Positions 5,238 through 49,544 of a stretch of DNA of 64,000 nucleotides are shown here, piece by piece. The translations under genes and the position numbers were made by a program. Position 1 is the stretch's first letter. Each line of letters opens with the position of its first letter. The notes beneath the pieces are model-generated. The model worked only from the letters and a program-made list of their open reading frames with translations. It ran no database searches and was not told the DNA's origin. Where the stretch lies: positions 1,616 to 65,615 of the forward strand of contig CAYVOW010000003.1 in assembly GCA_964453585.1 (NCBI GenBank), given 5' to 3'. This DNA comes from an uncultured Micropruina sp. (GTDB taxonomy: Bacteria; Actinomycetota; Actinomycetes; Propionibacteriales; Propionibacteriaceae).

Positions 5238-5588
5238 CGCGCCTCCCTTCGCCTTCGGTCAGTATTGCGACGCGGCTCCGACCACATTCACAGGCGCGCC
5301 GACGTGCTGAGCGGGTCCGCGGGAGGTGGCCGGTCGAGGTGGTTGCGGCAGGTGGCGGCGTGTTGGTGGCCTGGACGACGTACGCGCCGCCACGAACTGC
5401 CGCCAGCCAGGCGTGCCATGGCCGTGTCATCAGGCCGGCTGGCGGGGGCACCAAAGGTCGTCCCACTCCCTCGATCAGCCCTCCGGCGCGCACTGGCAGG
5501 CAACAGGGGGGACTGGAAATTAGGAAGTCTGGGAATCCTTAGAGTAAGTTGAGAAAGCAATCACTCATTTCTCAGGGAGTACCACGGA

Positions 5589-6509
5589 ATGTATCAGCCT
5601 CGTCGGGCAGCCGCCCCGATGGACTTGGTCGAGCCCGGCACCACCCTCGGCCACTCGGAATCGCCCTTCGGCGCGCCGCGCCGCGCCGCCCGCACCTGGC
5701 GGGATGCGGTCGCCGACCGCACGGCGCCGTTCGTCCTGACCCTGGCCACCGCCGCCACCGTGGGGTCGCTCGTCCTGGCCTCGGGGGCCAGTGCCAGCAC
5801 CGGGCAGGTCGCGATCGCGATGGACGGGCGCACCACCGATCAGGTGAGTCGTAGCAACACCCGAGTGGCGCTCGCCGAAGTCCCGCCAGCCTCAACCAAG
5901 ACCGTCGCCGAGGTGGCCATCGTCGCCACCCGGACGATGTACGCCAAGGACGCCTTGGTCGTCCGGGAAGAAGCCGACGCCAAGAGTGACAAGGTCGCAT
6001 CGTTGAAGCGCGGCGCCGAGGTGCACGCCACCCCGGAGTCCGACGGCAAGTTCCGGATGGTCGAGTACAAGGGCGAGCTCGCCTGGGTCCTCGACGACGC
6101 ACTCACCAGCAAGAAGCCGGTGGACGACGCCACCAGCGCCTCGGGCACGCCGGACGCGACCCGCGCGGTTCCGGGTGGCTCGGTGCTGGGGCTCAAGCCG
6201 GTCGCCATGGTCGTCTACCGCGCGGTGATGGCCCGTTGGGACGTCCCGAGCGTCGGTGGCTACCGGGCGCACAGCCTGTCGGTGCACCAGTTCGGCCGGG
6301 CGATCGACTTCATGGTCTACAAGGACTGGACGATGGGTGACCAGATCGCCGACTTCCTGATCGCCAACGCCAAGCAGTTCAAGGTCGACCACATCATCTT
6401 CCGGCAGCGGATCTGGACCCCGTCCAGCCCCTTCTGGCGGCACATGGCCGACCGGGGCGGCGTCACCGCGAACCACTACGACCACGTCCACGTGGCCGTT
6501 CGCCCCTGA
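5589..6509 (+). CDS. Exported SH3b-domain / LAS-type (M15-like) zinc peptidase, likely cell-wall hydrolase
   Basis: TM/signal segment FVLTLATAATVGSLVLASGASA. SH3b-like stretch TRTMYAKDALVVREEADAKSDKVASLKRGAEV...MVEYKGELAWV. H-x6-D (HQFGRAID) and H-x-H (HYDHVHV) zinc motifs at the C-terminus. AGGGAG lies 10 nt upstream of the ATG. Confidence 0.7.
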   Translation: MYQPRRAAAPMDLVEPGTTLGHSESPFGAPRRAARTWRDAVADRTAPFVLTLATAATVGSLVLASGASASTGQVAIAMDGRTTDQVSRSNTRVALAEVPPASTKTVAEVAIVATRTMYAKDALVVREEADAKSDKVASLKRGAEVHATPESDGKFRMVEYKGELAWVLDDALTSKKPVDDATSASGTPDATRAVPGGSVLGLKPVAMVVYRAVMARWDVPSVGGYRAHSLSVHQFGRAIDFMVYKDWTMGDQIADFLIANAKQFKVDHIIFRQRIWTPSSPFWRHMADRGGVTANHYDHVHVAVRP

Positions 6510-18998: not shown

Positions 18999-20336
18999 GT
19001 GCGAGTGATTACCTACGGCACCTTTGACCTCTTCCATGAGGGTCACCGCCGCCTCCTGGAGAGGGCCCGTGCCTTGGGAGATTACCTGATCGTGGGCGTG
19101 ACGACCGAAAACTACGATGACTCTCGGGGTAAACTAAACGTCAGGCAAACCCTGATGGAACGGATCCAAAATGTCCAGCAGAGCGGGCTCGCCGATGAGG
19201 TGATTATCGAAGAGTATGAAGGTCAGAAAGTTCAGGACATTCAGAAACATCGGATAGACATCTTCGCCATTGGATCCGACTGGCTGGGCAAGTTCGATTA
19301 CTTGGGTGACTACTGCAAGGTTGTTTACCTTGAGCGCACGAAGGGAGTCTCCAGCACGCAACTTCGCGACGAATCGAATGGCGTGATTCGTATCGGCGTG
19401 GTGGGCGCCGGGCGAATTGCGAGCCGATTCGTTGAAGAAGCACGTTACGTGAGCGGGGTGAGTGTGGAGGCTGTGTACAGCCGCAACTTCGAGAAGACGC
19501 GGCGATTTGCCGAGAGACTCGAGCTCGAATGGGCCAACGAGTCATTTGCCGATCTTTTGCAGCACGTCGAGGCAGTTTATGTAGCGACGCCTCATCGAAC
19601 TCATTACGCTTACGCCAAGGAGGCCCTAGAGGCACGCGTCCACGTCCTCTGCGAAAAACCGATGTGCTTATCTCGCGCCGAAGTTGAGACTCTGTTTGCT
19701 CTGGCCGCGGACCAGGGTGTGGTGTTGTTGGAAGCAGTGAAGACAGCGTTTTGCCCTGGTTTTCAACGCATGGTCGCAGTTGCTCGCAGCGGGTCCATTG
19801 GCCGTATTCGTTCGGTGGACGCAACCTTCACGAAATTGGTGACGGGGGGGCGAGAGCTCCACGGGGATGACGGGGGAAGCATCTCTGAGTTGGCCACGTA
19901 TCCGCTACTTGCCGCGGTCAAGCTGATGGGAACATCTTTTGTTGACCAGAAAACGTACTCCCTGATTCCGGATGGTTCGGAAGTCGAGGTCTTCTCACGT
20001 ATCGATTTGCTTTATGAGCAGGGAGTTGCCTCGGCCCGCACGGGTTTGGGAGTGAAGGCGGAGGGGGACCTCATTGTCGCCGGCAGCCGTGGGTACCTGT
20101 ATGTACCGGCCCCGTGGTGGAAGACCGAGTACTTCGAGACCCGGTTTGAGGACCAGAGCAAGAACAAGAAGTTCTACTACAAGTTCGATGGAGACGGACT
20201 TCGCTACGAACTCGCCGAGTTCGCCTGGATGATCCGCAATGGCGCGCCAGAGTCATTCAAGTTGCGCGCGATTGAGTCGGCGACACTCGCGGGAATCATT
20301 GAACAAGCCCGCAATCAGGCAACTCTGTTCGGCTGA
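18999..20336 (+). CDS. Fusion protein: TagD-type glycerol-3-phosphate cytidylyltransferase + Gfo/Idh/MocA NAD(P) oxidoreductase
   Basis: The N-terminus VRVITYGTFDLFHEGHRRLLERARALGDYLIVGV...IGSDWLGKFDYL...VVYLERTKGVSSTQLR matches B. subtilis TagD almost motif for motif. The remainder carries IRIGVVGAGRIA and VLCEKPM (Gfo/Idh/MocA Rossmann fold plus EKP motif). GTG at 18999 lies 9 nt after GGAGG. Confidence 0.9.
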   Translation: MRVITYGTFDLFHEGHRRLLERARALGDYLIVGVTTENYDDSRGKLNVRQTLMERIQNVQQSGLADEVIIEEYEGQKVQDIQKHRIDIFAIGSDWLGKFDYLGDYCKVVYLERTKGVSSTQLRDESNGVIRIGVVGAGRIASRFVEEARYVSGVSVEAVYSRNFEKTRRFAERLELEWANESFADLLQHVEAVYVATPHRTHYAYAKEALEARVHVLCEKPMCLSRAEVETLFALAADQGVVLLEAVKTAFCPGFQRMVAVARSGSIGRIRSVDATFTKLVTGGRELHGDDGGSISELATYPLLAAVKLMGTSFVDQKTYSLIPDGSEVEVFSRIDLLYEQGVASARTGLGVKAEGDLIVAGSRGYLYVPAPWWKTEYFETRFEDQSKNKKFYYKFDGDGLRYELAEFAWMIRNGAPESFKLRAIESATLAGIIEQARNQATLFG

Positions 20337-36630: not shown

Positions 36631-38520
36631 ATGAGCGAACTCGAAGGCGACGTCTACTACCCAGACCCGAGCATCGCCGCCACTTCCCACGTCCCGAACG
36701 CGGATCAGTTGCGCGCCGAGGCGCTGGCGGACCCGGCCGGTTTCTGGGCCGATCGCGCGTCCGAGTTGGAGTGGTTCAAGCCCTGGGACAAGGTGATCGA
36801 CGACTCGAACGCGCCGTTCTACAAGTGGTTCACCGGGGCCGAGGTGAACATCGTCCACAACTGCCTGGACCGGCACATGAGCGGGCCGAACAAGAACAAG
36901 CTGGCGCTGATCTGGCAGTCCGAGGACGGGCAGGAGCACAAGACGTTCAGCTACTTCTCGCTGCACCGGCGGGTGAACCAGATGGCCAACATCATCAAGG
37001 CGATGGGCGTCACCAAGGGCGACCGGGTCACCATCTACCTGCCGCGCATCCCCGAGGTGTTCTTCGCCATGCTGGCCTGCGCGAAGATCGGCGCGATCCA
37101 CTCGGTGATCTTCGCCGGCTTCTCCGCTGACGCCCTGACCGACCGGATCGACGACTCGCAGTCCAAGCTGGTGATCACCGCGGACGGCTCGTGGATCAAC
37201 GGCAGCGTTTTCCCGCTCAAGGAGATCGTGGACAAGGCGGTGAGGTTTTCGCCGACGGTGGAGAACGTGATCGTGGTGAAGCGGACCGGCAGCTCGGTCA
37301 CGATGGATCCCCTGCGCGACCACTGGTACCACGACCTGCTGGCGCTGCCGATCGCCAAGGGCACCTGCGAAACCGTGCCGGTGGACGCCGAGCACCCGCT
37401 CTACATCCTCTACACGTCCGGGTCGACTGGGAAGCCCAAGGCGATCCTGCACACCCACGGCGGCTACATGGTGGGCATCTACACGACCCTGAAGTACTGC
37501 TTCGACATGCGGCCCGAGGATCGCTGGTGGTGCACCGCAGACCCAGGCTGGGTGACCGGTCACTCGTATCTGGTTTACGGTCCGCTGCTGACCGGGGCGA
37601 CCACGTTCATGTTCGAGGGCGGGCCGACGTTCCCGTACCCCAGCCGCTGGTGGCAACTGGTCGAGTACTACGGGATCACGCAGTTCTACACCGCGCCGAC
37701 CGCGATTCGGTCGCTGATGCGTTTTGGCGAGGCGTGGCCGAACCGCCACGACCTGTCGTCGCTGCGGATCCTCGGCTCGGTCGGGGAGCCGATCAACCCC
37801 GAAGCCTGGCATTGGTTCCACCGGGTGATCGGCAAGGAGAAGATCCCGGTGATCGACACCTGGTGGCAGACCGAGACCGGCATGTTCCAGATCACCCAGG
37901 TGCCGGGCGAGCCGCAGAAGCCGGGCTCGGGCGGCAAGCCGTTCTTCGGCCAGGACGCCGCCATCCTCAACGAGGCCGGCGAGGAGGTGCCGGACGGCGA
38001 CGAGGGCTTCCTGGTGCTGAAGAACCCGTGGCCGGCGATGTTCCGGACGCTCTACGGTGACGACGACCGCTACGTGAGCACGTACTGGGCCAAGTATCCC
38101 GGCGTCTACCTGGCCGGGGACGCGGCCCGCCGGGACGCCGACGGCTACTTCTGGATCATCGGTCGCACCGACGACGTGATCAACGTGTCCGGGCATCGGC
38201 TGGGCACCGCCGAGGTCGAGTCGGCCCTGGTCTCCCACCCGGACGTCACCGAGGCGGCCGTGGTGGGACTGCCGCACGAGGTCAAAGGCCAGGCGATCCA
38301 CGCCTTCGTCACCCTACGGGTGGGCCAGACCGGGAGTCCCGACCTGGCCGAGGAGTTGCGCCGGCACGTGGCCAACCACCTGTCGCCAATCGCCAAGCCG
38401 GACGCGATTGACTTCCCGGACAAGCTGCCCAAGACCCGCTCAGGCAAGATCATGCGACGGGTGCTGAAGGCGCGGGCGCTGGGGCAGGACGAGGGCGACC
38501 TGACCACTCTGGAGGATTGA
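36631..38520 (+). CDS. acs: Acetyl-CoA synthetase (acetate--CoA ligase)
   Basis: FWADRASELEWFKPWDKV, NCLDRH, YTSGSTGKPKA (AMP-binding motif), WWCTADPGWVTGHSY, GEPINPEAW, WWQTETG, DGYFWIIGRTDDVINVSGHRLGTAEVES, PKTRSGKIMRR. Confidence 0.97.
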   Translation: MSELEGDVYYPDPSIAATSHVPNADQLRAEALADPAGFWADRASELEWFKPWDKVIDDSNAPFYKWFTGAEVNIVHNCLDRHMSGPNKNKLALIWQSEDGQEHKTFSYFSLHRRVNQMANIIKAMGVTKGDRVTIYLPRIPEVFFAMLACAKIGAIHSVIFAGFSADALTDRIDDSQSKLVITADGSWINGSVFPLKEIVDKAVRFSPTVENVIVVKRTGSSVTMDPLRDHWYHDLLALPIAKGTCETVPVDAEHPLYILYTSGSTGKPKAILHTHGGYMVGIYTTLKYCFDMRPEDRWWCTADPGWVTGHSYLVYGPLLTGATTFMFEGGPTFPYPSRWWQLVEYYGITQFYTAPTAIRSLMRFGEAWPNRHDLSSLRILGSVGEPINPEAWHWFHRVIGKEKIPVIDTWWQTETGMFQITQVPGEPQKPGSGGKPFFGQDAAILNEAGEEVPDGDEGFLVLKNPWPAMFRTLYGDDDRYVSTYWAKYPGVYLAGDAARRDADGYFWIIGRTDDVINVSGHRLGTAEVESALVSHPDVTEAAVVGLPHEVKGQAIHAFVTLRVGQTGSPDLAEELRRHVANHLSPIAKPDAIDFPDKLPKTRSGKIMRRVLKARALGQDEGDLTTLED

Positions 38521-38523
38521 CAA

Positions 38524-38551
38524 GAGCCCGCCCCCTGCGGGGTGCGGGCTC
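38524..38551. terminator. Bidirectional GC-rich hairpin between acs and micro-ORF c
   Basis: GAGCCCGCCCC-ctgc-GGGGTGCGGGCTC, starting 4 nt after the acs stop. Confidence 0.6.
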
Positions 38552-38580
38552 GGTGTTCGTCGTCGTTGAGTCTTGGAGAC

Positions 38581-38676
38581 TCAGGCGCGGCGCTTGCGGC
38601 GGCCCTGGCGGATCTCCTCGTCCAACGGCTGGACGCGTTGGGCATTGATCCAACGGCGCCAACTGGTGTTCAACAT
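38581..38676 (-). CDS. Micro-ORF c, 31 aa, basic C-terminus (hypothetical small protein)
   Basis: Own translation: MLNTSWRRWINAQRVQPLDEEIRQGRRKRRA. 27 of 31 third positions are G/C. GAGAGGGGG lies 9 nt upstream of the ATG. It is below the size cut-off of the ORF track. Confidence 0.35.
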   Translation of the reverse strand: MLNTSWRRWINAQRVQPLDEEIRQGRRKRRA

Positions 38677-38716
38677 GATGTTCGACCCCCTCTCACCGGA
38701 TCTCGTAACGATTATT

Positions 38717-38722
38717 AGTCTA
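38717..38722 (-). promoter_or_regulatory. Candidate -10 hexamer TAGACT upstream of micro-ORF c
   Basis: Reverse strand: gtcagcTAGACTAATAATCgttacg... about 40 nt before the ATG. The motif TAGACTAA(T/A)AATC recurs upstream of micro-ORF b. Confidence 0.35.
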
Positions 38723-38929
38723 GCTGACCTTCACGTTTCAACAAGTTCGGCAGATGATGAAATGCCGTGCTAGCGGGGCTTGAAAGCGGAGAATCCACGG
38801 TCTGAGAGGTCTTGCACGGTGAAAGATCTTGCCAGCGCTCGAACGTCGAACCCGGCTCCGGAGCTTTGGTTGCTACGCGTTGGCGATGCGTGAGCGCGAT
38901 GGGTCGCCTGCCGTAGCCCAGACATGGTG

Positions 38930-38964
38930 AAAGCCCGTCATCACCACGGTGTGATGCGGGCTTT
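38930..38964. terminator. Strong hairpin immediately downstream of micro-ORF a
   Basis: AAAGCCCG(t)CATCAC-cacggt-GTGATGCGGGCTTT: a 14-bp stem with one bulge and A/T tracts on both flanks. Confidence 0.6.
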
Positions 38965-38984: not shown

Positions 38985-39077
38985 TCAGGCCTGCTCGGTG
39001 ACGGAACCGTTCTCCAAGCGGAGCTGATCGTGGGCGATCAGGCGGTAGCCATCCATCCAGCGCTGCAGTGGATTCAT
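38985..39077 (-). CDS. Micro-ORF a, 30 aa (hypothetical small protein, paralogue of micro-ORF b)
   Basis: Own translation: MNPLQRWMDGYRLIAHDQLRLENGSVTEQA. A perfect SD (GAAGGAGGTGA) ends 6 nt before the ATG. The terminator hairpin begins 20 nt after the stop. Confidence 0.45.
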   Translation of the reverse strand: MNPLQRWMDGYRLIAHDQLRLENGSVTEQA

Positions 39078-39125
39078 TCGGGGTCACCTCCTTCGGGTGC
39101 TGGTGCCTCGACCGATGGGAGTCGG

Positions 39126-39209
39126 TCAGGCCTGGTTGTCGCGCTCGAGGCGCAGTTCCTGCTCGGAGAGCCAGCGGAACTGGTCACTCATGAGATCGAA
39201 GAGGGTCAT
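39126..39209 (-). CDS. Micro-ORF b, 27 aa (hypothetical small protein, paralogue of micro-ORF a)
   Basis: Own translation: MTLFDLMSDQFRWLSEQELRLERDNQA. The SD AAAGGAGGTA ends 6 nt before the ATG. It aligns without gaps to micro-ORF a over residues 1-23. Confidence 0.45.
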   Translation of the reverse strand: MTLFDLMSDQFRWLSEQELRLERDNQA

Positions 39210-39233
39210 CGTGGTACCTCCTTTCTGATTTTT

Positions 39234-39239
39234 AGTCTA
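39234..39239 (-). promoter_or_regulatory. Candidate -10 hexamer TAGACT upstream of micro-ORF b, inside an AT-rich inverted repeat
   Basis: Reverse strand: TGATTTAGTttgtTAGACTAAAAATCAgaAAGGAGG. TAGACT lies 24 nt before the ATG. The imperfect palindrome TGATTTAGT/ACTAAAAATCA spans 39226-39252. Confidence 0.35.
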
Positions 39240-39270
39240 ACAAACTAAATCAAGGATGCAATCTGACCGG

Positions 39271-39477
39271 TCAGTCGGCGGTCGGTGGAGGTGTCCGGGC
39301 GGCCTCGATCCTGGCCTTCGCGCCGTCCAGCCACTGCTGGCAGGTGCGGGCCAGCACCTCGCCGCGCTCCCACAGCTCCAGGGATTTGGACAGTGGCACG
39401 TTCCCGGATTCGAGCTGTCGGACGATCTCGATCAGCTCGTCGCGGGCCTGTTCGTAGCCGACCGGTTCGCCAGTCAT
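39271..39477 (-). CDS. xseB: Exodeoxyribonuclease VII small subunit
   Basis: 68 aa, YEQARDELIEIVRQLESGNVPLSKSLELWERGEVLARTCQQWLDGA. It overlaps the xseA stop by 4 nt. Confidence 0.93.
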   Translation of the reverse strand: MTGEPVGYEQARDELIEIVRQLESGNVPLSKSLELWERGEVLARTCQQWLDGAKARIEAARTPPPTAD

Positions 39478-40697
39478 CGTTCCTCCTGATGGACGTCGAG
39501 GACGGCCAGGTCCAGTTGGCCGTCGCTGAGGTGAGCGAGCAGGTTGTCGCCGGCTCTGGTGTCGCCGACCTTGGCGACGGTTGATCCGTCGGGACCCACA
39601 AGGATGGCGTAGCCCCTGGCCAGGGTCGCCTTGGGGGAGAGGGAGCGGACCCGCTGCAGGGCATGCTCAATGGTCCGCTCGCCCTCCCGGAGCCGCTCGT
39701 CGGTGGCTCGGCGGAGTTGCTCGACGCTCCGCGTCAAGCGCTCGCTGTGCAGATCCAGACTGGCGGTCGGGGCCTTGAGCACCGGTCGTGACACCAGATC
39801 GGCGAGCCGCCGTCGCTCGGAGTCGATCCGCTGGCCCGCCGCGGTCCGGATTCGCTCCCGCGCCTGCGCCACCCGGTTCGCCTCCTCCGCGGCGTCGGGC
39901 ACCACCCGCTTGGCGGCGTCGGTCGGCGTCGAAGCCCGCAGATCCGCGACCAGGTCGAGGATCGGGGTGTCGCTCTCGTGGCCGATCGCGCTGACCACGG
40001 GCGTCCGGCAGCGGTGGACGGCCCGGGCCAGCCCCTCGTCGGAGAACGGCAGCAGATCCTCGATCGACCCGCCGCCGCGGGCGACGATGATCACGTCCAC
40101 CTCGGGGTGCCGATCGAGGGCCGCCAGGGCCGCCACCACCTGCTCGGCGCAGGACGGCCCCTGCATCAGGGCGTACCTGATCTCCAGGACGGCGGCCGGC
40201 CAGCGGCGCCGGACGTTCTCGACCACGTCCCGCTCGGCGGCGCTCTTGTCGCCGGTGATCAGCCCGATTCGACGCGGCAGGAAGGGCAGTCGCCGCTTCA
40301 GCGCCGGATCAAACAGGCCCTCGGCCTGGAGCAGGCGCTTGCGCTGATCCAACTGCGCCAGCAGTCGGCCTTCGCCGGCCGGCCGGATGTCGCGGCACTC
40401 GAAGGTGAGCGACCCCGACTGCGACCACAGCGTCGGCTTCACCCAGGCGGTCACCCCCGTGCCCTCGGTGAGTGGTCCGGCCGCATCCAGCACAGCCGTC
40501 GAGATCGACACCCGAACCGACACCTCGGCCAGCTTGTCGCGCAGCGTCAGAAAGTGGGTGGCGGCACCGGCGCGCCGGGTCAGTTGGATCAGCTGGGCCT
40601 CCACCCACACCGCTCCCAGCCGCTCGACCCAGTCCTTGGTGGCGGCCACCACCGCCCGCAGCGGCTGCGGGTTCTCGGGGGAGTTGGCGAGCGCCAT
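39474..40697 (-). CDS. xseA: Exodeoxyribonuclease VII large subunit
   Basis: WVEAQLIQLTRR, SGSLTFECRDIRPAGEGRL, LPFLPRRIGLITGDKSAAERD, DVIIVARGGGSIEDLLPF, PVVSAIGHESDTPILDLVAD. Confidence 0.95.
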   Translation of the reverse strand: MALANSPENPQPLRAVVAATKDWVERLGAVWVEAQLIQLTRRAGAATHFLTLRDKLAEVSVRVSISTAVLDAAGPLTEGTGVTAWVKPTLWSQSGSLTFECRDIRPAGEGRLLAQLDQRKRLLQAEGLFDPALKRRLPFLPRRIGLITGDKSAAERDVVENVRRRWPAAVLEIRYALMQGPSCAEQVVAALAALDRHPEVDVIIVARGGGSIEDLLPFSDEGLARAVHRCRTPVVSAIGHESDTPILDLVADLRASTPTDAAKRVVPDAAEEANRVAQARERIRTAAGQRIDSERRRLADLVSRPVLKAPTASLDLHSERLTRSVEQLRRATDERLREGERTIEHALQRVRSLSPKATLARGYAILVGPDGSTVAKVGDTRAGDNLLAHLSDGQLDLAVLDVHQEER

Positions 40698-40701
40698 CCG
40701 G

Positions 40702-40896
40702 TCAGCCCTTGCCGCGGCGAGCGGCCTCGCGCAGGGTCTCGTCCGGAATCAACCCGTGCCCCCTCACCCGCGCCGGGACGAGGCCGGGCGCCGCCGAGAG
40801 ATGGGCCGCGAAGATCGCGCAGAAGGCGTCCCAGGGGAGGCCGGTCACCCCCCGCGGGGCGGCTTGCTCGTGGAGCAGGGTGGTGTAGTCGTCCAT
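40702..40896 (-). CDS. Small hypothetical protein (64 aa) heading the xseA-xseB transcription unit
   Basis: Nearly every third position is G/C in my own codon read-out. It stops 4 nt before the xseA start. On the reverse strand a TAGGCT -10 box (40903-40908) lies 6 nt before its ATG. No family recognised. Confidence 0.45.
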
Positions 40897-40902
40897 GCGG
40901 CC

Positions 40903-40908
40903 AGCCTA
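40903..40908 (-). promoter_or_regulatory. Candidate -10 hexamer TAGGCT for a leaderless transcript of the 64-aa ORF/xseAB
   Basis: Reverse strand: cgTAGGCTggccgcATG. Confidence 0.4.
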
Positions 40909-40938
40909 CGGGCCAGCTCCGACACTGGCCGCGCGGCC

Positions 40939-40944
40939 TAGACT
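40939..40944 (+). promoter_or_regulatory. Candidate -10 hexamer TAGACT for leaderless ispH
   Basis: ccTAGACTggcgcccATG: 7 nt to the ATG and no SD. Confidence 0.45.
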
Positions 40945-40951
40945 GGCGCCC

Positions 40952-48183: not shown

Positions 48184-48269
48184 GGGCCGACGCTAGGACA
48201 GGTCAGGCTCTGCGGTGCCACGTCCCACCGGGGTGGTCGCCAGCCGAGGGCGGCTGAGAGGCTGGGGGC

Positions 48270-49544
48270 ATGGCTCTCGACCACGTTCACGACCTGGCCG
48301 CCTTCGTGACCGCATCGCCGTCCTCCTTTCACGCCGCCGCCGAAGTAGCGGCCCGGCTGGAGGGTGTGGGGTATCGGCGGGTGATCGAGGACCACCCGTG
48401 GCCGACCGAGCCGGGCGGCTACGGCCTCGTCCGGGACGGCTCGGTGGTGGCCTGGCAGGTTCCGGCCGACCTCGACCCTGCCCGGGCCGAGGTGCGCCTG
48501 GTCGGCGCGCACACTGACTCGCCAGGGTTCAAGCTGAAGCCCAACCCCTGGTCGAATTCCTGCGGCTGTCACCAGGCGGGCGTGGAGGTCTACGGCGGTC
48601 CGCTGCTCAACAGTTGGCTGGATCGCGAGTTCGGACTCGCCGGGCAGGTGGTCGACGCCCACGGCACCGTCCACCTCGTGCGAACCCCCGCCTGGCTACG
48701 GATTCCGCAACTCGCCCCGCACCTGGACCGCAGCGTCAACGACAAGCTGCAACTCGACCGGCAGCAGCACCTGCACCCGATCTACGGCACCTGGCTGGGG
48801 CTGCGCGATCGCGACCCCGACGTGCTGGACCTGATCGCCCAGGAGTGCGGCACGGGCCCGATTATCAGCCACGACCTGATCTCCTACGACGCCCAGCCTC
48901 CGGCCATCTTCGGACCCGCTGAGGACATGTTCGCCAGCGCCCGCCTCGACAACCTGGTCAGCGTTCACGCCGGGCTGCGGGCCCTGCAGGCGTCACAGCC
49001 GCATCGGAATGCGATTCAGTTGCTCGCCTGCTTCGACCACGAAGAGGTGGGCAGCGGCAGCCGGACGGGAGCATCCGGGCCGCTGTTGGAGAGCGTGTTG
49101 CGCCGGATCGCGTCCGGCCTCGGCTGGTCGGTCGACCAAGCCGAACAGTTGTGGGCCCGGTCGTTCCTGATCTCGGCCGACTGCGGTCACGCCGTGCACC
49201 CCAACTACCCGCAGTTTCACGATCCCGACCACAAGGTGATCATGAACGGCGGGCCGATCTTGAAGGTCAACGCCAACCAGCGCTACGCCTCGGACGCGCC
49301 TGGGCAGGCGCGCTGGCGGCGGGCGTGTGCGGCGGCCGACGTGCCGACGCAGGTATTCGTATCGAACAACGCTGTGCCCTGCGGCTCCACCATCGGACCA
49401 CTGTCGGCCACCCGACTCGGCATCCGGACGGTCGACGTCGGCGTCCCGCTGCTGTCGATGCACTCGGCGCGCGAGCTGTGCGGGGTGCGGGACCCCGGCT
49501 GGTTGGCCGACGCGCTGCTCGCGTTCTATCAGGACGGCGCGTGA
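48270..49544 (+). CDS. M18-family (aspartyl) aminopeptidase
   Basis: FVTASPSSFHA, LVGAHTDSPGFKLKPN, YGGPLLNSWLDRE, ASARLDNL, FDHEEVGS, ISADCGHAVHPNY, NANQRYA, GSTIGP, VDVGVPLLSMHSAREL. Confidence 0.93.
   Translation: MALDHVHDLAAFVTASPSSFHAAAEVAARLEGVGYRRVIEDHPWPTEPGGYGLVRDGSVVAWQVPADLDPARAEVRLVGAHTDSPGFKLKPNPWSNSCGCHQAGVEVYGGPLLNSWLDREFGLAGQVVDAHGTVHLVRTPAWLRIPQLAPHLDRSVNDKLQLDRQQHLHPIYGTWLGLRDRDPDVLDLIAQECGTGPIISHDLISYDAQPPAIFGPAEDMFASARLDNLVSVHAGLRALQASQPHRNAIQLLACFDHEEVGSGSRTGASGPLLESVLRRIASGLGWSVDQAEQLWARSFLISADCGHAVHPNYPQFHDPDHKVIMNGGPILKVNANQRYASDAPGQARWRRACAAADVPTQVFVSNNAVPCGSTIGPLSATRLGIRTVDVGVPLLSMHSARELCGVRDPGWLADALLAFYQDGA

Follow-up and report, generated by a model that had tools for sequence, protein, structure and literature searches.

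Does the gap behind xseB, the gene for the small subunit of exonuclease VII (ExoVII), hold genes of its own in an uncultured member of the Propionibacteriaceae, and if it does, what might their products be for? The question is raised by a 64,000-nucleotide (nt) stretch of a Micropruina sp. contig (CAYVOW010000003.1, positions 1,616 to 65,615; the window from here on), in which an earlier reading made from the letters alone (the sequence-only reading) had pointed to two tandem micro open reading frames (micro-ORFs) on the reverse strand between xseB and acs. The upstream one, b, occupies 39126-39209 and encodes 27 aa (MTLFDLMSDQFRWLSEQELRLERDNQA, net charge -3), and the second, a, lies in the same frame at 38985-39077 and encodes 30 aa (MNPLQRWMDGYRLIAHDQLRLENGSVTEQA, net charge -1), both being defined by reading frame and by G+C at the codon positions, and the coordinates and peptide sequences first given for them proved exact. 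In this article, I will argue for reading a and b as fast-evolving, lineage-restricted genes for small proteins that lie at the distal end of the xseAB unit and are confined, as far as sampled, to what seems to be this one inhabitant of sewage and activated sludge. I put the probability of this reading at about 0.6, a figure that merges high confidence that the two are translated with a far lower expectation that their function involves ExoVII.

The signals for translation come first. The octamer AAGGAGGT is found three times on both strands of the window (128 kb of sequence) and two of these three sites are the Shine-Dalgarno (SD) sequences of b and a, each with its ATG downstream, which bears out the earlier remark on their exceptional strength. 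The SD of b is AAAGGAGGT at 39224-39216, with AAAGGAGGTA ending 5 nt before the b ATG, and that of a is GAAGGAGGTGA at 39094-39084, ending 6 nt before the a ATG, the GGAGG cores standing 7 nt (b) and 9 nt (a) from the respective ATGs; the 6 nt once given for both is thus right for a and one too many for b. Among the 101 ATG-initiated ORFs of 25-40 codons in the window, only three carry AGGAGG or GGAGGT in position, a and b being two of them. The sole other small ATG-ORF with an AGGAGG-type SD (GAAAGGAGGACGGCG-ATG, 40 codons, 48196-48335 on the reverse strand) has a G+C by codon position of 0.78/0.75/0.60, with no coding-type skew, and probably either is not a gene or has an SD that serves another frame.

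The codon composition of a and b is of the kind expected from coding sequence in a genome of high G+C. In a window of 66% G+C, the values at codon positions 1/2/3 are 0.67/0.30/0.89 for b and 0.67/0.37/0.83 for a, and by a one-tailed Fisher test of G/C at codon position 3 against position 2, as used for the small ORFs (sORFs) of Mycobacterium tuberculosis (PMC9094748), the skew is significant for b (p = 2.2e-5), for a (p = 5.3e-4) and for the two together (p = 3.4e-8). Smith et al. (2022, eLife; PMC9094748) regarded a third-position G+C above that of the second position as a sign of purifying selection on sORFs, and found that ORFs merely translated in M. tuberculosis mostly lack it; a, b and a further micro-ORF of the same gap, c, are all intergenic with a significant skew and in this respect fall within the class that these authors described. 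A sliding frame plot confines the periodicity to the a, b and c ORFs, and the spacer at 38725-38925 is flat, with a G+C of 0.57-0.61 in all phases. Together with the placement of the SDs, these statistics support the protein-coding reading first proposed, and a and b are very probably translated genes. Public gene calling agrees in part: a (30 aa) is already called as a gene on 28 public contigs and b (27 aa) is not present in the public protein collection, so that the earlier statement that gene callers would miss both is correct for b and mistaken for a.

Could the region instead be a non-coding RNA, or a structured 3' untranslated region of xseAB, in which the ORFs are open by chance? An open frame of 27-30 codons is, by a rough estimate, about 50% likely by chance at this G+C, a smaller hairpin extends over the b stop codon, and the closing hairpin described below is the sole element that is conserved across genera. 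However, the best Rfam 15 matches in the region score 11-17 bits where the gathering scores are 36-70 bits, two of the window's three strongest SD octamers would have to stand correctly spaced before these ATGs by accident, the codon periodicity coincides exactly with the ORFs, and the duplication that relates a to b kept frame, SD and stop context. The counterpart cassettes of the Nigerium clade (see below) are also SD-led, with a third-position G+C (GC3) above 0.9 in two of them (L009 and L094), and I consider a purely RNA-level explanation very improbable.

The paralogy of the two micro-ORFs, which the sequence-only reading had based on a gapless alignment of the peptides and a shared QA end, is visible in the peptides and in the DNA. 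The peptides align without gaps over residues 1-23. Nine positions of the full alignment are identical, LRLE and the QA at the end among them, and the Smith-Waterman score is 33 where shuffles average 17.5 +/- 3.7 (p = 0.0036). At the DNA level the match runs the whole length of the two units, starting at the SD and continuing for 10 nt after the stop codon, with a score that none of 2000 shuffles reaches; this alignment takes in the initiation region AAGGAGGT.ACCnCG.ATGA and a run of 19 nt across the stop codon, CAGGCCTGACCGnCTCnCA, of which 17 are identical. The difference in length is 9 nt, a multiple of three, and the frame is the same. Furthermore, identity between a and b exceeds the codon-shuffle expectation at codon positions 1 and 2 (p = 0.0018) and not at position 3 (p = 0.28), which is the pattern of a duplicate under amino-acid constraint with its silent sites saturated. 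The pair would thus have arisen by tandem duplication. As to the products, the mean Eisenberg hydrophobicity is -0.14 for a and -0.22 for b, a membrane-spanning stretch is absent, and both peptides are hydrophilic and acidic, while an AlphaFold2 single-sequence model of a shows one helix at residues 3-24 (mean pLDDT, the predicted local distance difference test score, of 81).

How a and b would be transcribed can be read from the sequences on either side of them. The b ATG lies 61 nt after the xseB stop, across an AT-rich spacer (39210-39270) that, by count, has 41% G+C as against 66% in the window, and neither hairpin nor terminator was seen in these 61 nt. Because the gap is so short and has no terminator, the simplest view of the pair is as the distal portion of the xseA-xseB transcription unit, reached by read-through from xseB, and the self-contained two-cistron unit proposed before is probably not what the locus holds. 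The spacer also has promoter-like elements before b, namely TTGCAT (39261-39256), a 16-nt spacer and TAGACT (39239-39234), possibly an internal promoter, which would probably add independent transcription of b and a. Transcripts of both kinds would end at a terminator-like hairpin, AAAGCCCGCAUCAC...GUGAUGACGGGCUUUC, at 38930-38964, identified by its fold (-29.4 kcal/mol for a 71-nt stretch, z = -4.06) and by nhmmer homology to hairpins of the Nigerium clade; the 14-bp hairpin of the sequence-only reading is therefore real, and it was passed over by a strict consensus scan for terminators on account of its short T-run (CUUUC). As each cistron has its own near-perfect SD, a and b would be translated independently, each yielding a peptide of about 3 kDa, acidic and hydrophilic, that would form a single alpha-helix. 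The 48-nt intercistronic region (39078-39125), judged by fold and SD count, is entered by the small hairpin already mentioned (39104-39131, reverse strand; -15.9 kcal/mol, z = -2.9), which overlaps the stop codon of b, stands just upstream of the SD of a, and could serve to couple the translation of a or to restrain it.

The spacer before b has further structure. An inverted-repeat search recovers the AT-rich palindrome noted earlier around the TAGACT box (39226-39252), with TGATTT/AAATCA and TTTAGT/ACTAAA as its AT-rich arms, and the 13-mer TAGACTAAAAATC stands at 39239-39227, upstream of b; the 13-mer TAGACTAAWAATC has two copies in the window where 0.12 would be expected, the second of them before c. 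I also compared the palindrome with the HspR operator, whose consensus is TTGAGT-N7-ACTCAA. With up to two mismatches, this pattern has three matches in the 64 kb (0.66 expected), at 39231-39249, 38566-38584 and 20272-20290, two of which lie in the xseB-acs gap, as the palindrome of the b promoter and as an inverted repeat directly after the stop codon of c. The third (20272-20290) lies inside a coding region and not at a heat-shock gene, and the idea of an HspR-associated inverted repeat (HAIR) is at most a lead. The core TAGT-N7-ACTA recurs in the L094 cassette of the Nigerium clade, and with one mismatch in that of L009, and the pattern within the gap may be a shared operator.

Although a and b themselves have no detectable relatives there, their place in the operon does have a counterpart in three lineages of the Nigerium clade: a Nigerium sp. 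metagenome-assembled genome (L009, cassette at 5428-5925), N. massiliense GCA_000826085 (L094, 4458-4965) and a metagenome contig (L127, 1655-2105). In each of them an AT-rich region, an SD-led ORF1 of 37-39 aa, an SD-led ORF2 of 27-28 aa and a hairpin follow directly after xseB. These micro-genes are unnamed in the collection, with no Pfam match where this was looked up; ORF1 has a WL[ES]GAE core, ORF2 starts with MFNFF or MLNFY, and the micro-genes are followed by the conserved hairpin and the motif CCCGCATTTAA. The four ORFs of L009 and L094 have a GC3 of 0.92-0.97 and a second-position G+C of 0.26-0.41, and their two ORF1s are clearly homologous, the WLEGAES core differing at third positions only. 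The closing hairpins are homologous with that of the window, since a model built from the three Nigerium-clade hairpins and run with nhmmer over the 64 kb has its top match at 38965-38926 (E = 2.1e-5, the next being 0.17), and the four hairpins have 14 common pairs, three of them with compensatory changes. An earlier hairpin model (L009 and L094) matches only cassette-bearing lineages among 100 related loci, and a metagenome scan with the hairpin pattern gave 20 chance matches, none linked to xseB. With a model of the full cassette, the a unit is matched by the initiation region of ORF2, by ORF2 itself and by the hairpin (E = 5.6e-4).

The homology of the closing hairpin indicates that the slot, that is, the position, the SD-led pair and the terminator, is older than the present peptides, which would have turned over within a frame common to these three lineages and the window. 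The likenesses are place and strand after xseB, AT-rich sequence upstream, two SD-led ORFs of 27-39 codons and the closing hairpin; on the other hand, ORF1 and ORF2 are not paralogues of each other as a and b are, the window has the extra unit c, and the promoter regions align in part only, with the 12-mer TGATTTTTAGTC common to the window and L009. Alignments of b to ORF1 and of a or c to ORF2 that had been made by eye were rejected by the ranking of hidden Markov model (HMM) scores, and the top window match of the ORF1 HMM (60720, forward strand) is a chance motif in a segment without a start codon. Other members of the Nigerium clade lack the cassette, and by these comparisons the slot is lost, or was never gained, in most relatives.

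The searches for relatives of a and b gave a consistent picture. Pfam (E <= 1), NCBIfam, PHROGs and PADLOC returned nothing for either peptide, and the earlier impression that they belong to no recognised family is borne out by these libraries and by profile searches. A word-indexed search with b and a concatenated gave no candidate and did not return ORF a itself, so that very short proteins may fall outside its index; searches of phage and plasmid DNA with the 750-nt gap gave chance fragments only, and 80 GTDB loci found via XseA yielded no related peptide by motif search or tblastn. The tblastn and HMM comparison with relatives, which the sequence-only reading had proposed as a check, found no homologue of a or b. 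Its second proposal was to ask whether the frames are conserved in the syntenic acs-xseB gap. The nearest relatives, whose XseA is 73% identical, keep the order lytB-xseA-xseB-acs-DUF4245, and their gaps cannot be aligned with that of the window. The source organism recurs in sewage and activated-sludge metagenomes, and it appears to belong to an undersampled lineage, since 73% is the highest identity that its XseA reaches among 5.8 billion proteins even though identical contigs recur. In the nearest relative (L089), which is without a cassette, the xseB-acs gap contains a 30-codon ATG ORF at 5498-5590 on the forward strand (MTGSTAFLIELQSRPHDTAAHISRARPPAP), with a third-position G+C of about 83% by hand count and no SD, and downstream of it a weaker CACCAC...GGTGGT hairpin in the same relative position as the cassette hairpin.

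Several of these results weigh against lineage-restricted small-protein genes with a role at xseAB, and they are best considered together. An exhaustive profile search of 1.84 billion protein representatives found only the query (ORF a) and two repetitive proteins, the source organism is known from metagenomes only, and in its nearest relatives the xseB-acs gap is only 213-228 nt long and without micro-ORFs. Substitution counts do not show strong purifying selection either between a and b (proportions of non-synonymous and synonymous differences, pN/pS, of 0.42/0.53) or between the Nigerium species (0.36/0.37 for ORF1 and 0.53/0.47 for ORF2). The one single-nucleotide polymorphism (SNP) in the 750-nt gap, seen in one strain, is non-synonymous and changes a conserved motif of a (E22K, LRLE to LRLK); all other public contigs of the species are identical over the region and, like those of Nigerium strains, are uninformative for the ratio of non-synonymous to synonymous substitution rates (dN/dS). 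HMMs of the Nigerium ORF1 and ORF2 rank a, b and c only 84 to 207 among 1056 small ORFs, and direct comparison of a, b and c with the Nigerium peptides gives pairwise p values of 0.055-0.93 and an hhalign P of 0.36. A strict sigma-70 consensus scan picked up no promoter in the xseB-b spacer, and the link of a and b to ExoVII is one of gene order. The amphipathicity of the peptides is marginal and not significant, with a hydrophobic moment (muH) of about 0.5 that 7-11% of shuffles reach, and of the earlier description as charged, amphipathic, non-hydrophobic and not hok-like, it is accordingly the word amphipathic that has to go, hydrophilic, acidic and not hok-like being the part that stands.

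It is here that a second explanation gains its weight, namely that a and b are translated and that the sequence of their peptides is irrelevant, because they are young proto-genes or because translation serves the mRNA, for instance by shielding the 3' end of the xseAB message or fixing the point of termination. The occupants of the slot turn over fast, the window and Nigerium peptides are without similarity, pN is close to pS between Nigerium species, the sole polymorphism falls in the LRLE motif, the absence of the cassette from most relatives means that it is dispensable, and across genera it is the hairpin that is conserved and not the peptides. However, a skew of p = 3e-8 needs amino-acid constraint on codon position 2, a skew that merely translated ORFs of M. 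tuberculosis mostly lack (PMC9094748), the identity of the paralogues is concentrated at codon positions 1 and 2, and the WLEGAES core of the Nigerium ORF1 varies at third positions only. I hold this explanation to be unlikely, though worth keeping in mind, and continue with small proteins whose sequence matters.

If so, what would such peptides do? They would most likely bind a larger protein, and the leading candidate for a partner is the helical bundle of ExoVII, made of the central helix of XseA and the hairpins of XseB, because the operon linkage is kept in three further lineages of the Nigerium clade. That the function of a and b involves ExoVII is nevertheless doubtful. In Escherichia coli, XseB is a helical hairpin, six copies of which grip each XseA helix as three-helix bundles by way of a few hydrophobic positions (PMC10835039), and this structure makes a helix-mimic mechanism conceivable. 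One could then picture the micro-ORFs as a partial tandem duplicate of the 3' half of xseB (helix 2), whose products modulate the assembly of the XseA-XseB bundle, and a tandem duplication would be expected to place its copy where the micro-ORFs are, on the strand of xseB and directly after it.

Some of the alignments lean in this direction. By tblastn, QRWMDGYR of a resembles the conserved QRWLDGAR of XseB helix 2; hhalign places residues 6-21 of the Nigerium ORF1 on residues 40-55 of the XseB profile (P = 5e-4, probability 31%; KLxxAWLEGAES against LAxxCQxWLDGAKA) and a/b on the same segment (residues 4-13 of a, LQRWMDGYRL against CQQWLDGAKA; P = 0.01, probability 4%). Of the 142 small ORFs in their loci, the two Nigerium ORF1s take the two top ranks with a custom XseB HMM, and in L009 the DNA of xseB can be aligned with that of ORF1 for about 40 nt (p = 0.0035). 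However, no score is significant alone at database scale, Pfam PF02609 matches neither a nor b (E <= 1), the custom HMM gives a an E of 5.3 (rank 5 of 1056 small ORFs) and the idea arose from this same similarity, the DNA test fails in L094 and in the window, the register of a and b on XseB conflicts with their register on each other, and the match may merely reflect amphipathic helices that contain W. Derivation of a and b from XseB is thus not significant for the window, and mimicry of the XseA helix was set aside as well, the peptides having no similarity to the XseA helical domain. XseB and the micro-ORFs are alike in that xseB is encoded immediately upstream, that both products are helical and that a short W-L/M-D/E-G motif resembles the start of XseB helix 2; they are unlike in that the match to the family model is not significant and that a, with 30 aa and one predicted helix at residues 3-24 (about 22 residues), is not an XseB-type two-helix hairpin of 70-80 residues. 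It is accordingly improbable that a and b are xseB fragments, and equally so that the slot behind xseB is a cradle of micro-genes, seeded by partial duplication of xseB helix 2, whose occupants (a, b and the Nigerium ORF1) are helix mimics tuning ExoVII assembly or disassembly. If it were true, mimics of this type that insert into the XseA-XseB bundles or compete for them would be an unknown, lineage-variable third component of ExoVII.

The surroundings of the pair can be summarized as follows. Upstream on the reverse strand are xseA (39474-40697, Pfam PF02601) and xseB (39271-39477, 68 aa, Pfam PF02609, E = 1e-19), and the neighbours within 3 kb on either side of the micro-ORFs are DUF2332, LytB, XseA, XseB, Acs and DUF4245. 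Downstream of the terminator-like hairpin, a non-coding spacer (38723-38929, reverse strand), recognized by its flat codon phase and the lack of an Rfam match, leads to a second promoter-like site (38710-38744, reverse strand) that contains the 13-mer repeat (repeat family D3) and consists of TTGTTG (38744-38739), a 16-nt spacer and TAGACT (38722-38717), the last within TAGACTAATAATC (38722-38710), the copy of the 13-mer upstream of b. It precedes micro-ORF c (38581-38676, reverse strand; 31 aa, MLNTSWRRWINAQRVQPLDEEIRQGRRKRRA), a basic peptide of net charge +6 encoded 300 nt downstream of the a/b pair and defined by its reading frame and GC3 (0.87; skew by Fisher test p = 5.1e-3). Micro-ORF c, which the sequence-only reading had not noticed, is among the called genes of 17 public contigs and matches no family in Pfam, NCBIfam, PHROGs or PADLOC; the thought that it might be a third paralogue of a and b is not supported, as there is no similarity beyond the 13-mer. 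The 3' end of the c unit (38524-38584) comprises the inverted repeat TTGAGTCTTGGAGACTCAG (38566-38584) and then a G+C-rich hairpin (38524-38551, z = -4.5), which is 4 nt away from the stop codon of acs, a convergent gene ending at 38520; this hairpin is shared by the ends of c and acs and is probably a bidirectional terminator. On the far side of xseA is a short ORF (40702-40950, reverse strand) for which public contigs give lengths of 64-83 aa and Pfam no match, and comparison of strain L088 with the window shows a cluster of substitutions there, a variable patch adjoining lytB.

Why should one care about two genes of such a size? At present a and b are a well-supported annotation of small genes. 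The sequence features, the paralogy, the codon signature, the lack of homologues and the homology of the hairpin are observations, from which transcription, translation and, most of all, function are inferred. If translated, the two are an orphan family that extends the little-charted repertoire of actinobacterial small proteins. They would also be a clean natural case of micro-gene turnover, in which the frame (operon position, SDs and terminator) is fixed and the peptides within it were replaced, or diverged beyond recognition, with one of them duplicated, making the locus useful for the study of the birth, retention and loss of very short genes. Furthermore, the repeated linkage to xseAB provides a testable lead to accessory factors of ExoVII, which matters for the repair of quinolone-trapped gyrase.

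How, then, do a and b compare with short ORFs that are already familiar? Tandem duplication of micro-ORFs is a typical feature of type I toxin loci and some precursor arrays of ribosomally made peptides with post-translational modifications (RiPPs), and one might also think of attenuator leader peptides. Type I toxin loci (hok, ldr, ibs) hold tandemly duplicated, intergenic and often lineage-restricted ORFs of fewer than 50 codons, as the present locus does, but their products are hydrophobic membrane helices whose translation is usually repressed by a sequestered or weak SD or by antisense RNA, whereas a and b have maximal SDs and acidic, hydrophilic peptides with no membrane-spanning stretch, and no Rfam antitoxin RNA family was matched at the region. 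A leader function does not agree with ORFs that lie downstream of xseAB and are followed by a terminator and a 200-nt non-coding spacer with no regulated gene downstream, nor with the absence of runs of a regulatory codon; for RiPP precursors, maturation enzymes and an exporter are absent within 3 kb on either side. As PADLOC, PHROG and NCBIfam are also without a match, I give next to no credence to membership in any of these three classes. The phenol-soluble modulin (PSM) alpha-type operons of staphylococci are closer in architecture, being compact units of tandem paralogous micro-ORFs with their own SDs that encode single-helix peptides of 20-30 residues, all of which can be said of a and b. 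However, PSMs have hydrophobic sequences of strong amphipathicity and leave the cell through an ABC transporter of their own, whereas the peptides of a and b are hydrophilic and acidic, their amphipathicity is only marginal, and there is no transporter nearby. The remaining comparison is with the sORFs of M. tuberculosis (PMC9094748), also from a high-G+C actinobacterium, of at most 50 codons, partly missed by annotation and with a G+C at codon position 3 above that of position 2; there is no sequence relation, and those sORFs are backed by Ribo-RET while a and b are known from sequence, and the tandem paralogous arrangement and the fixed place behind xseB are specific to a and b.

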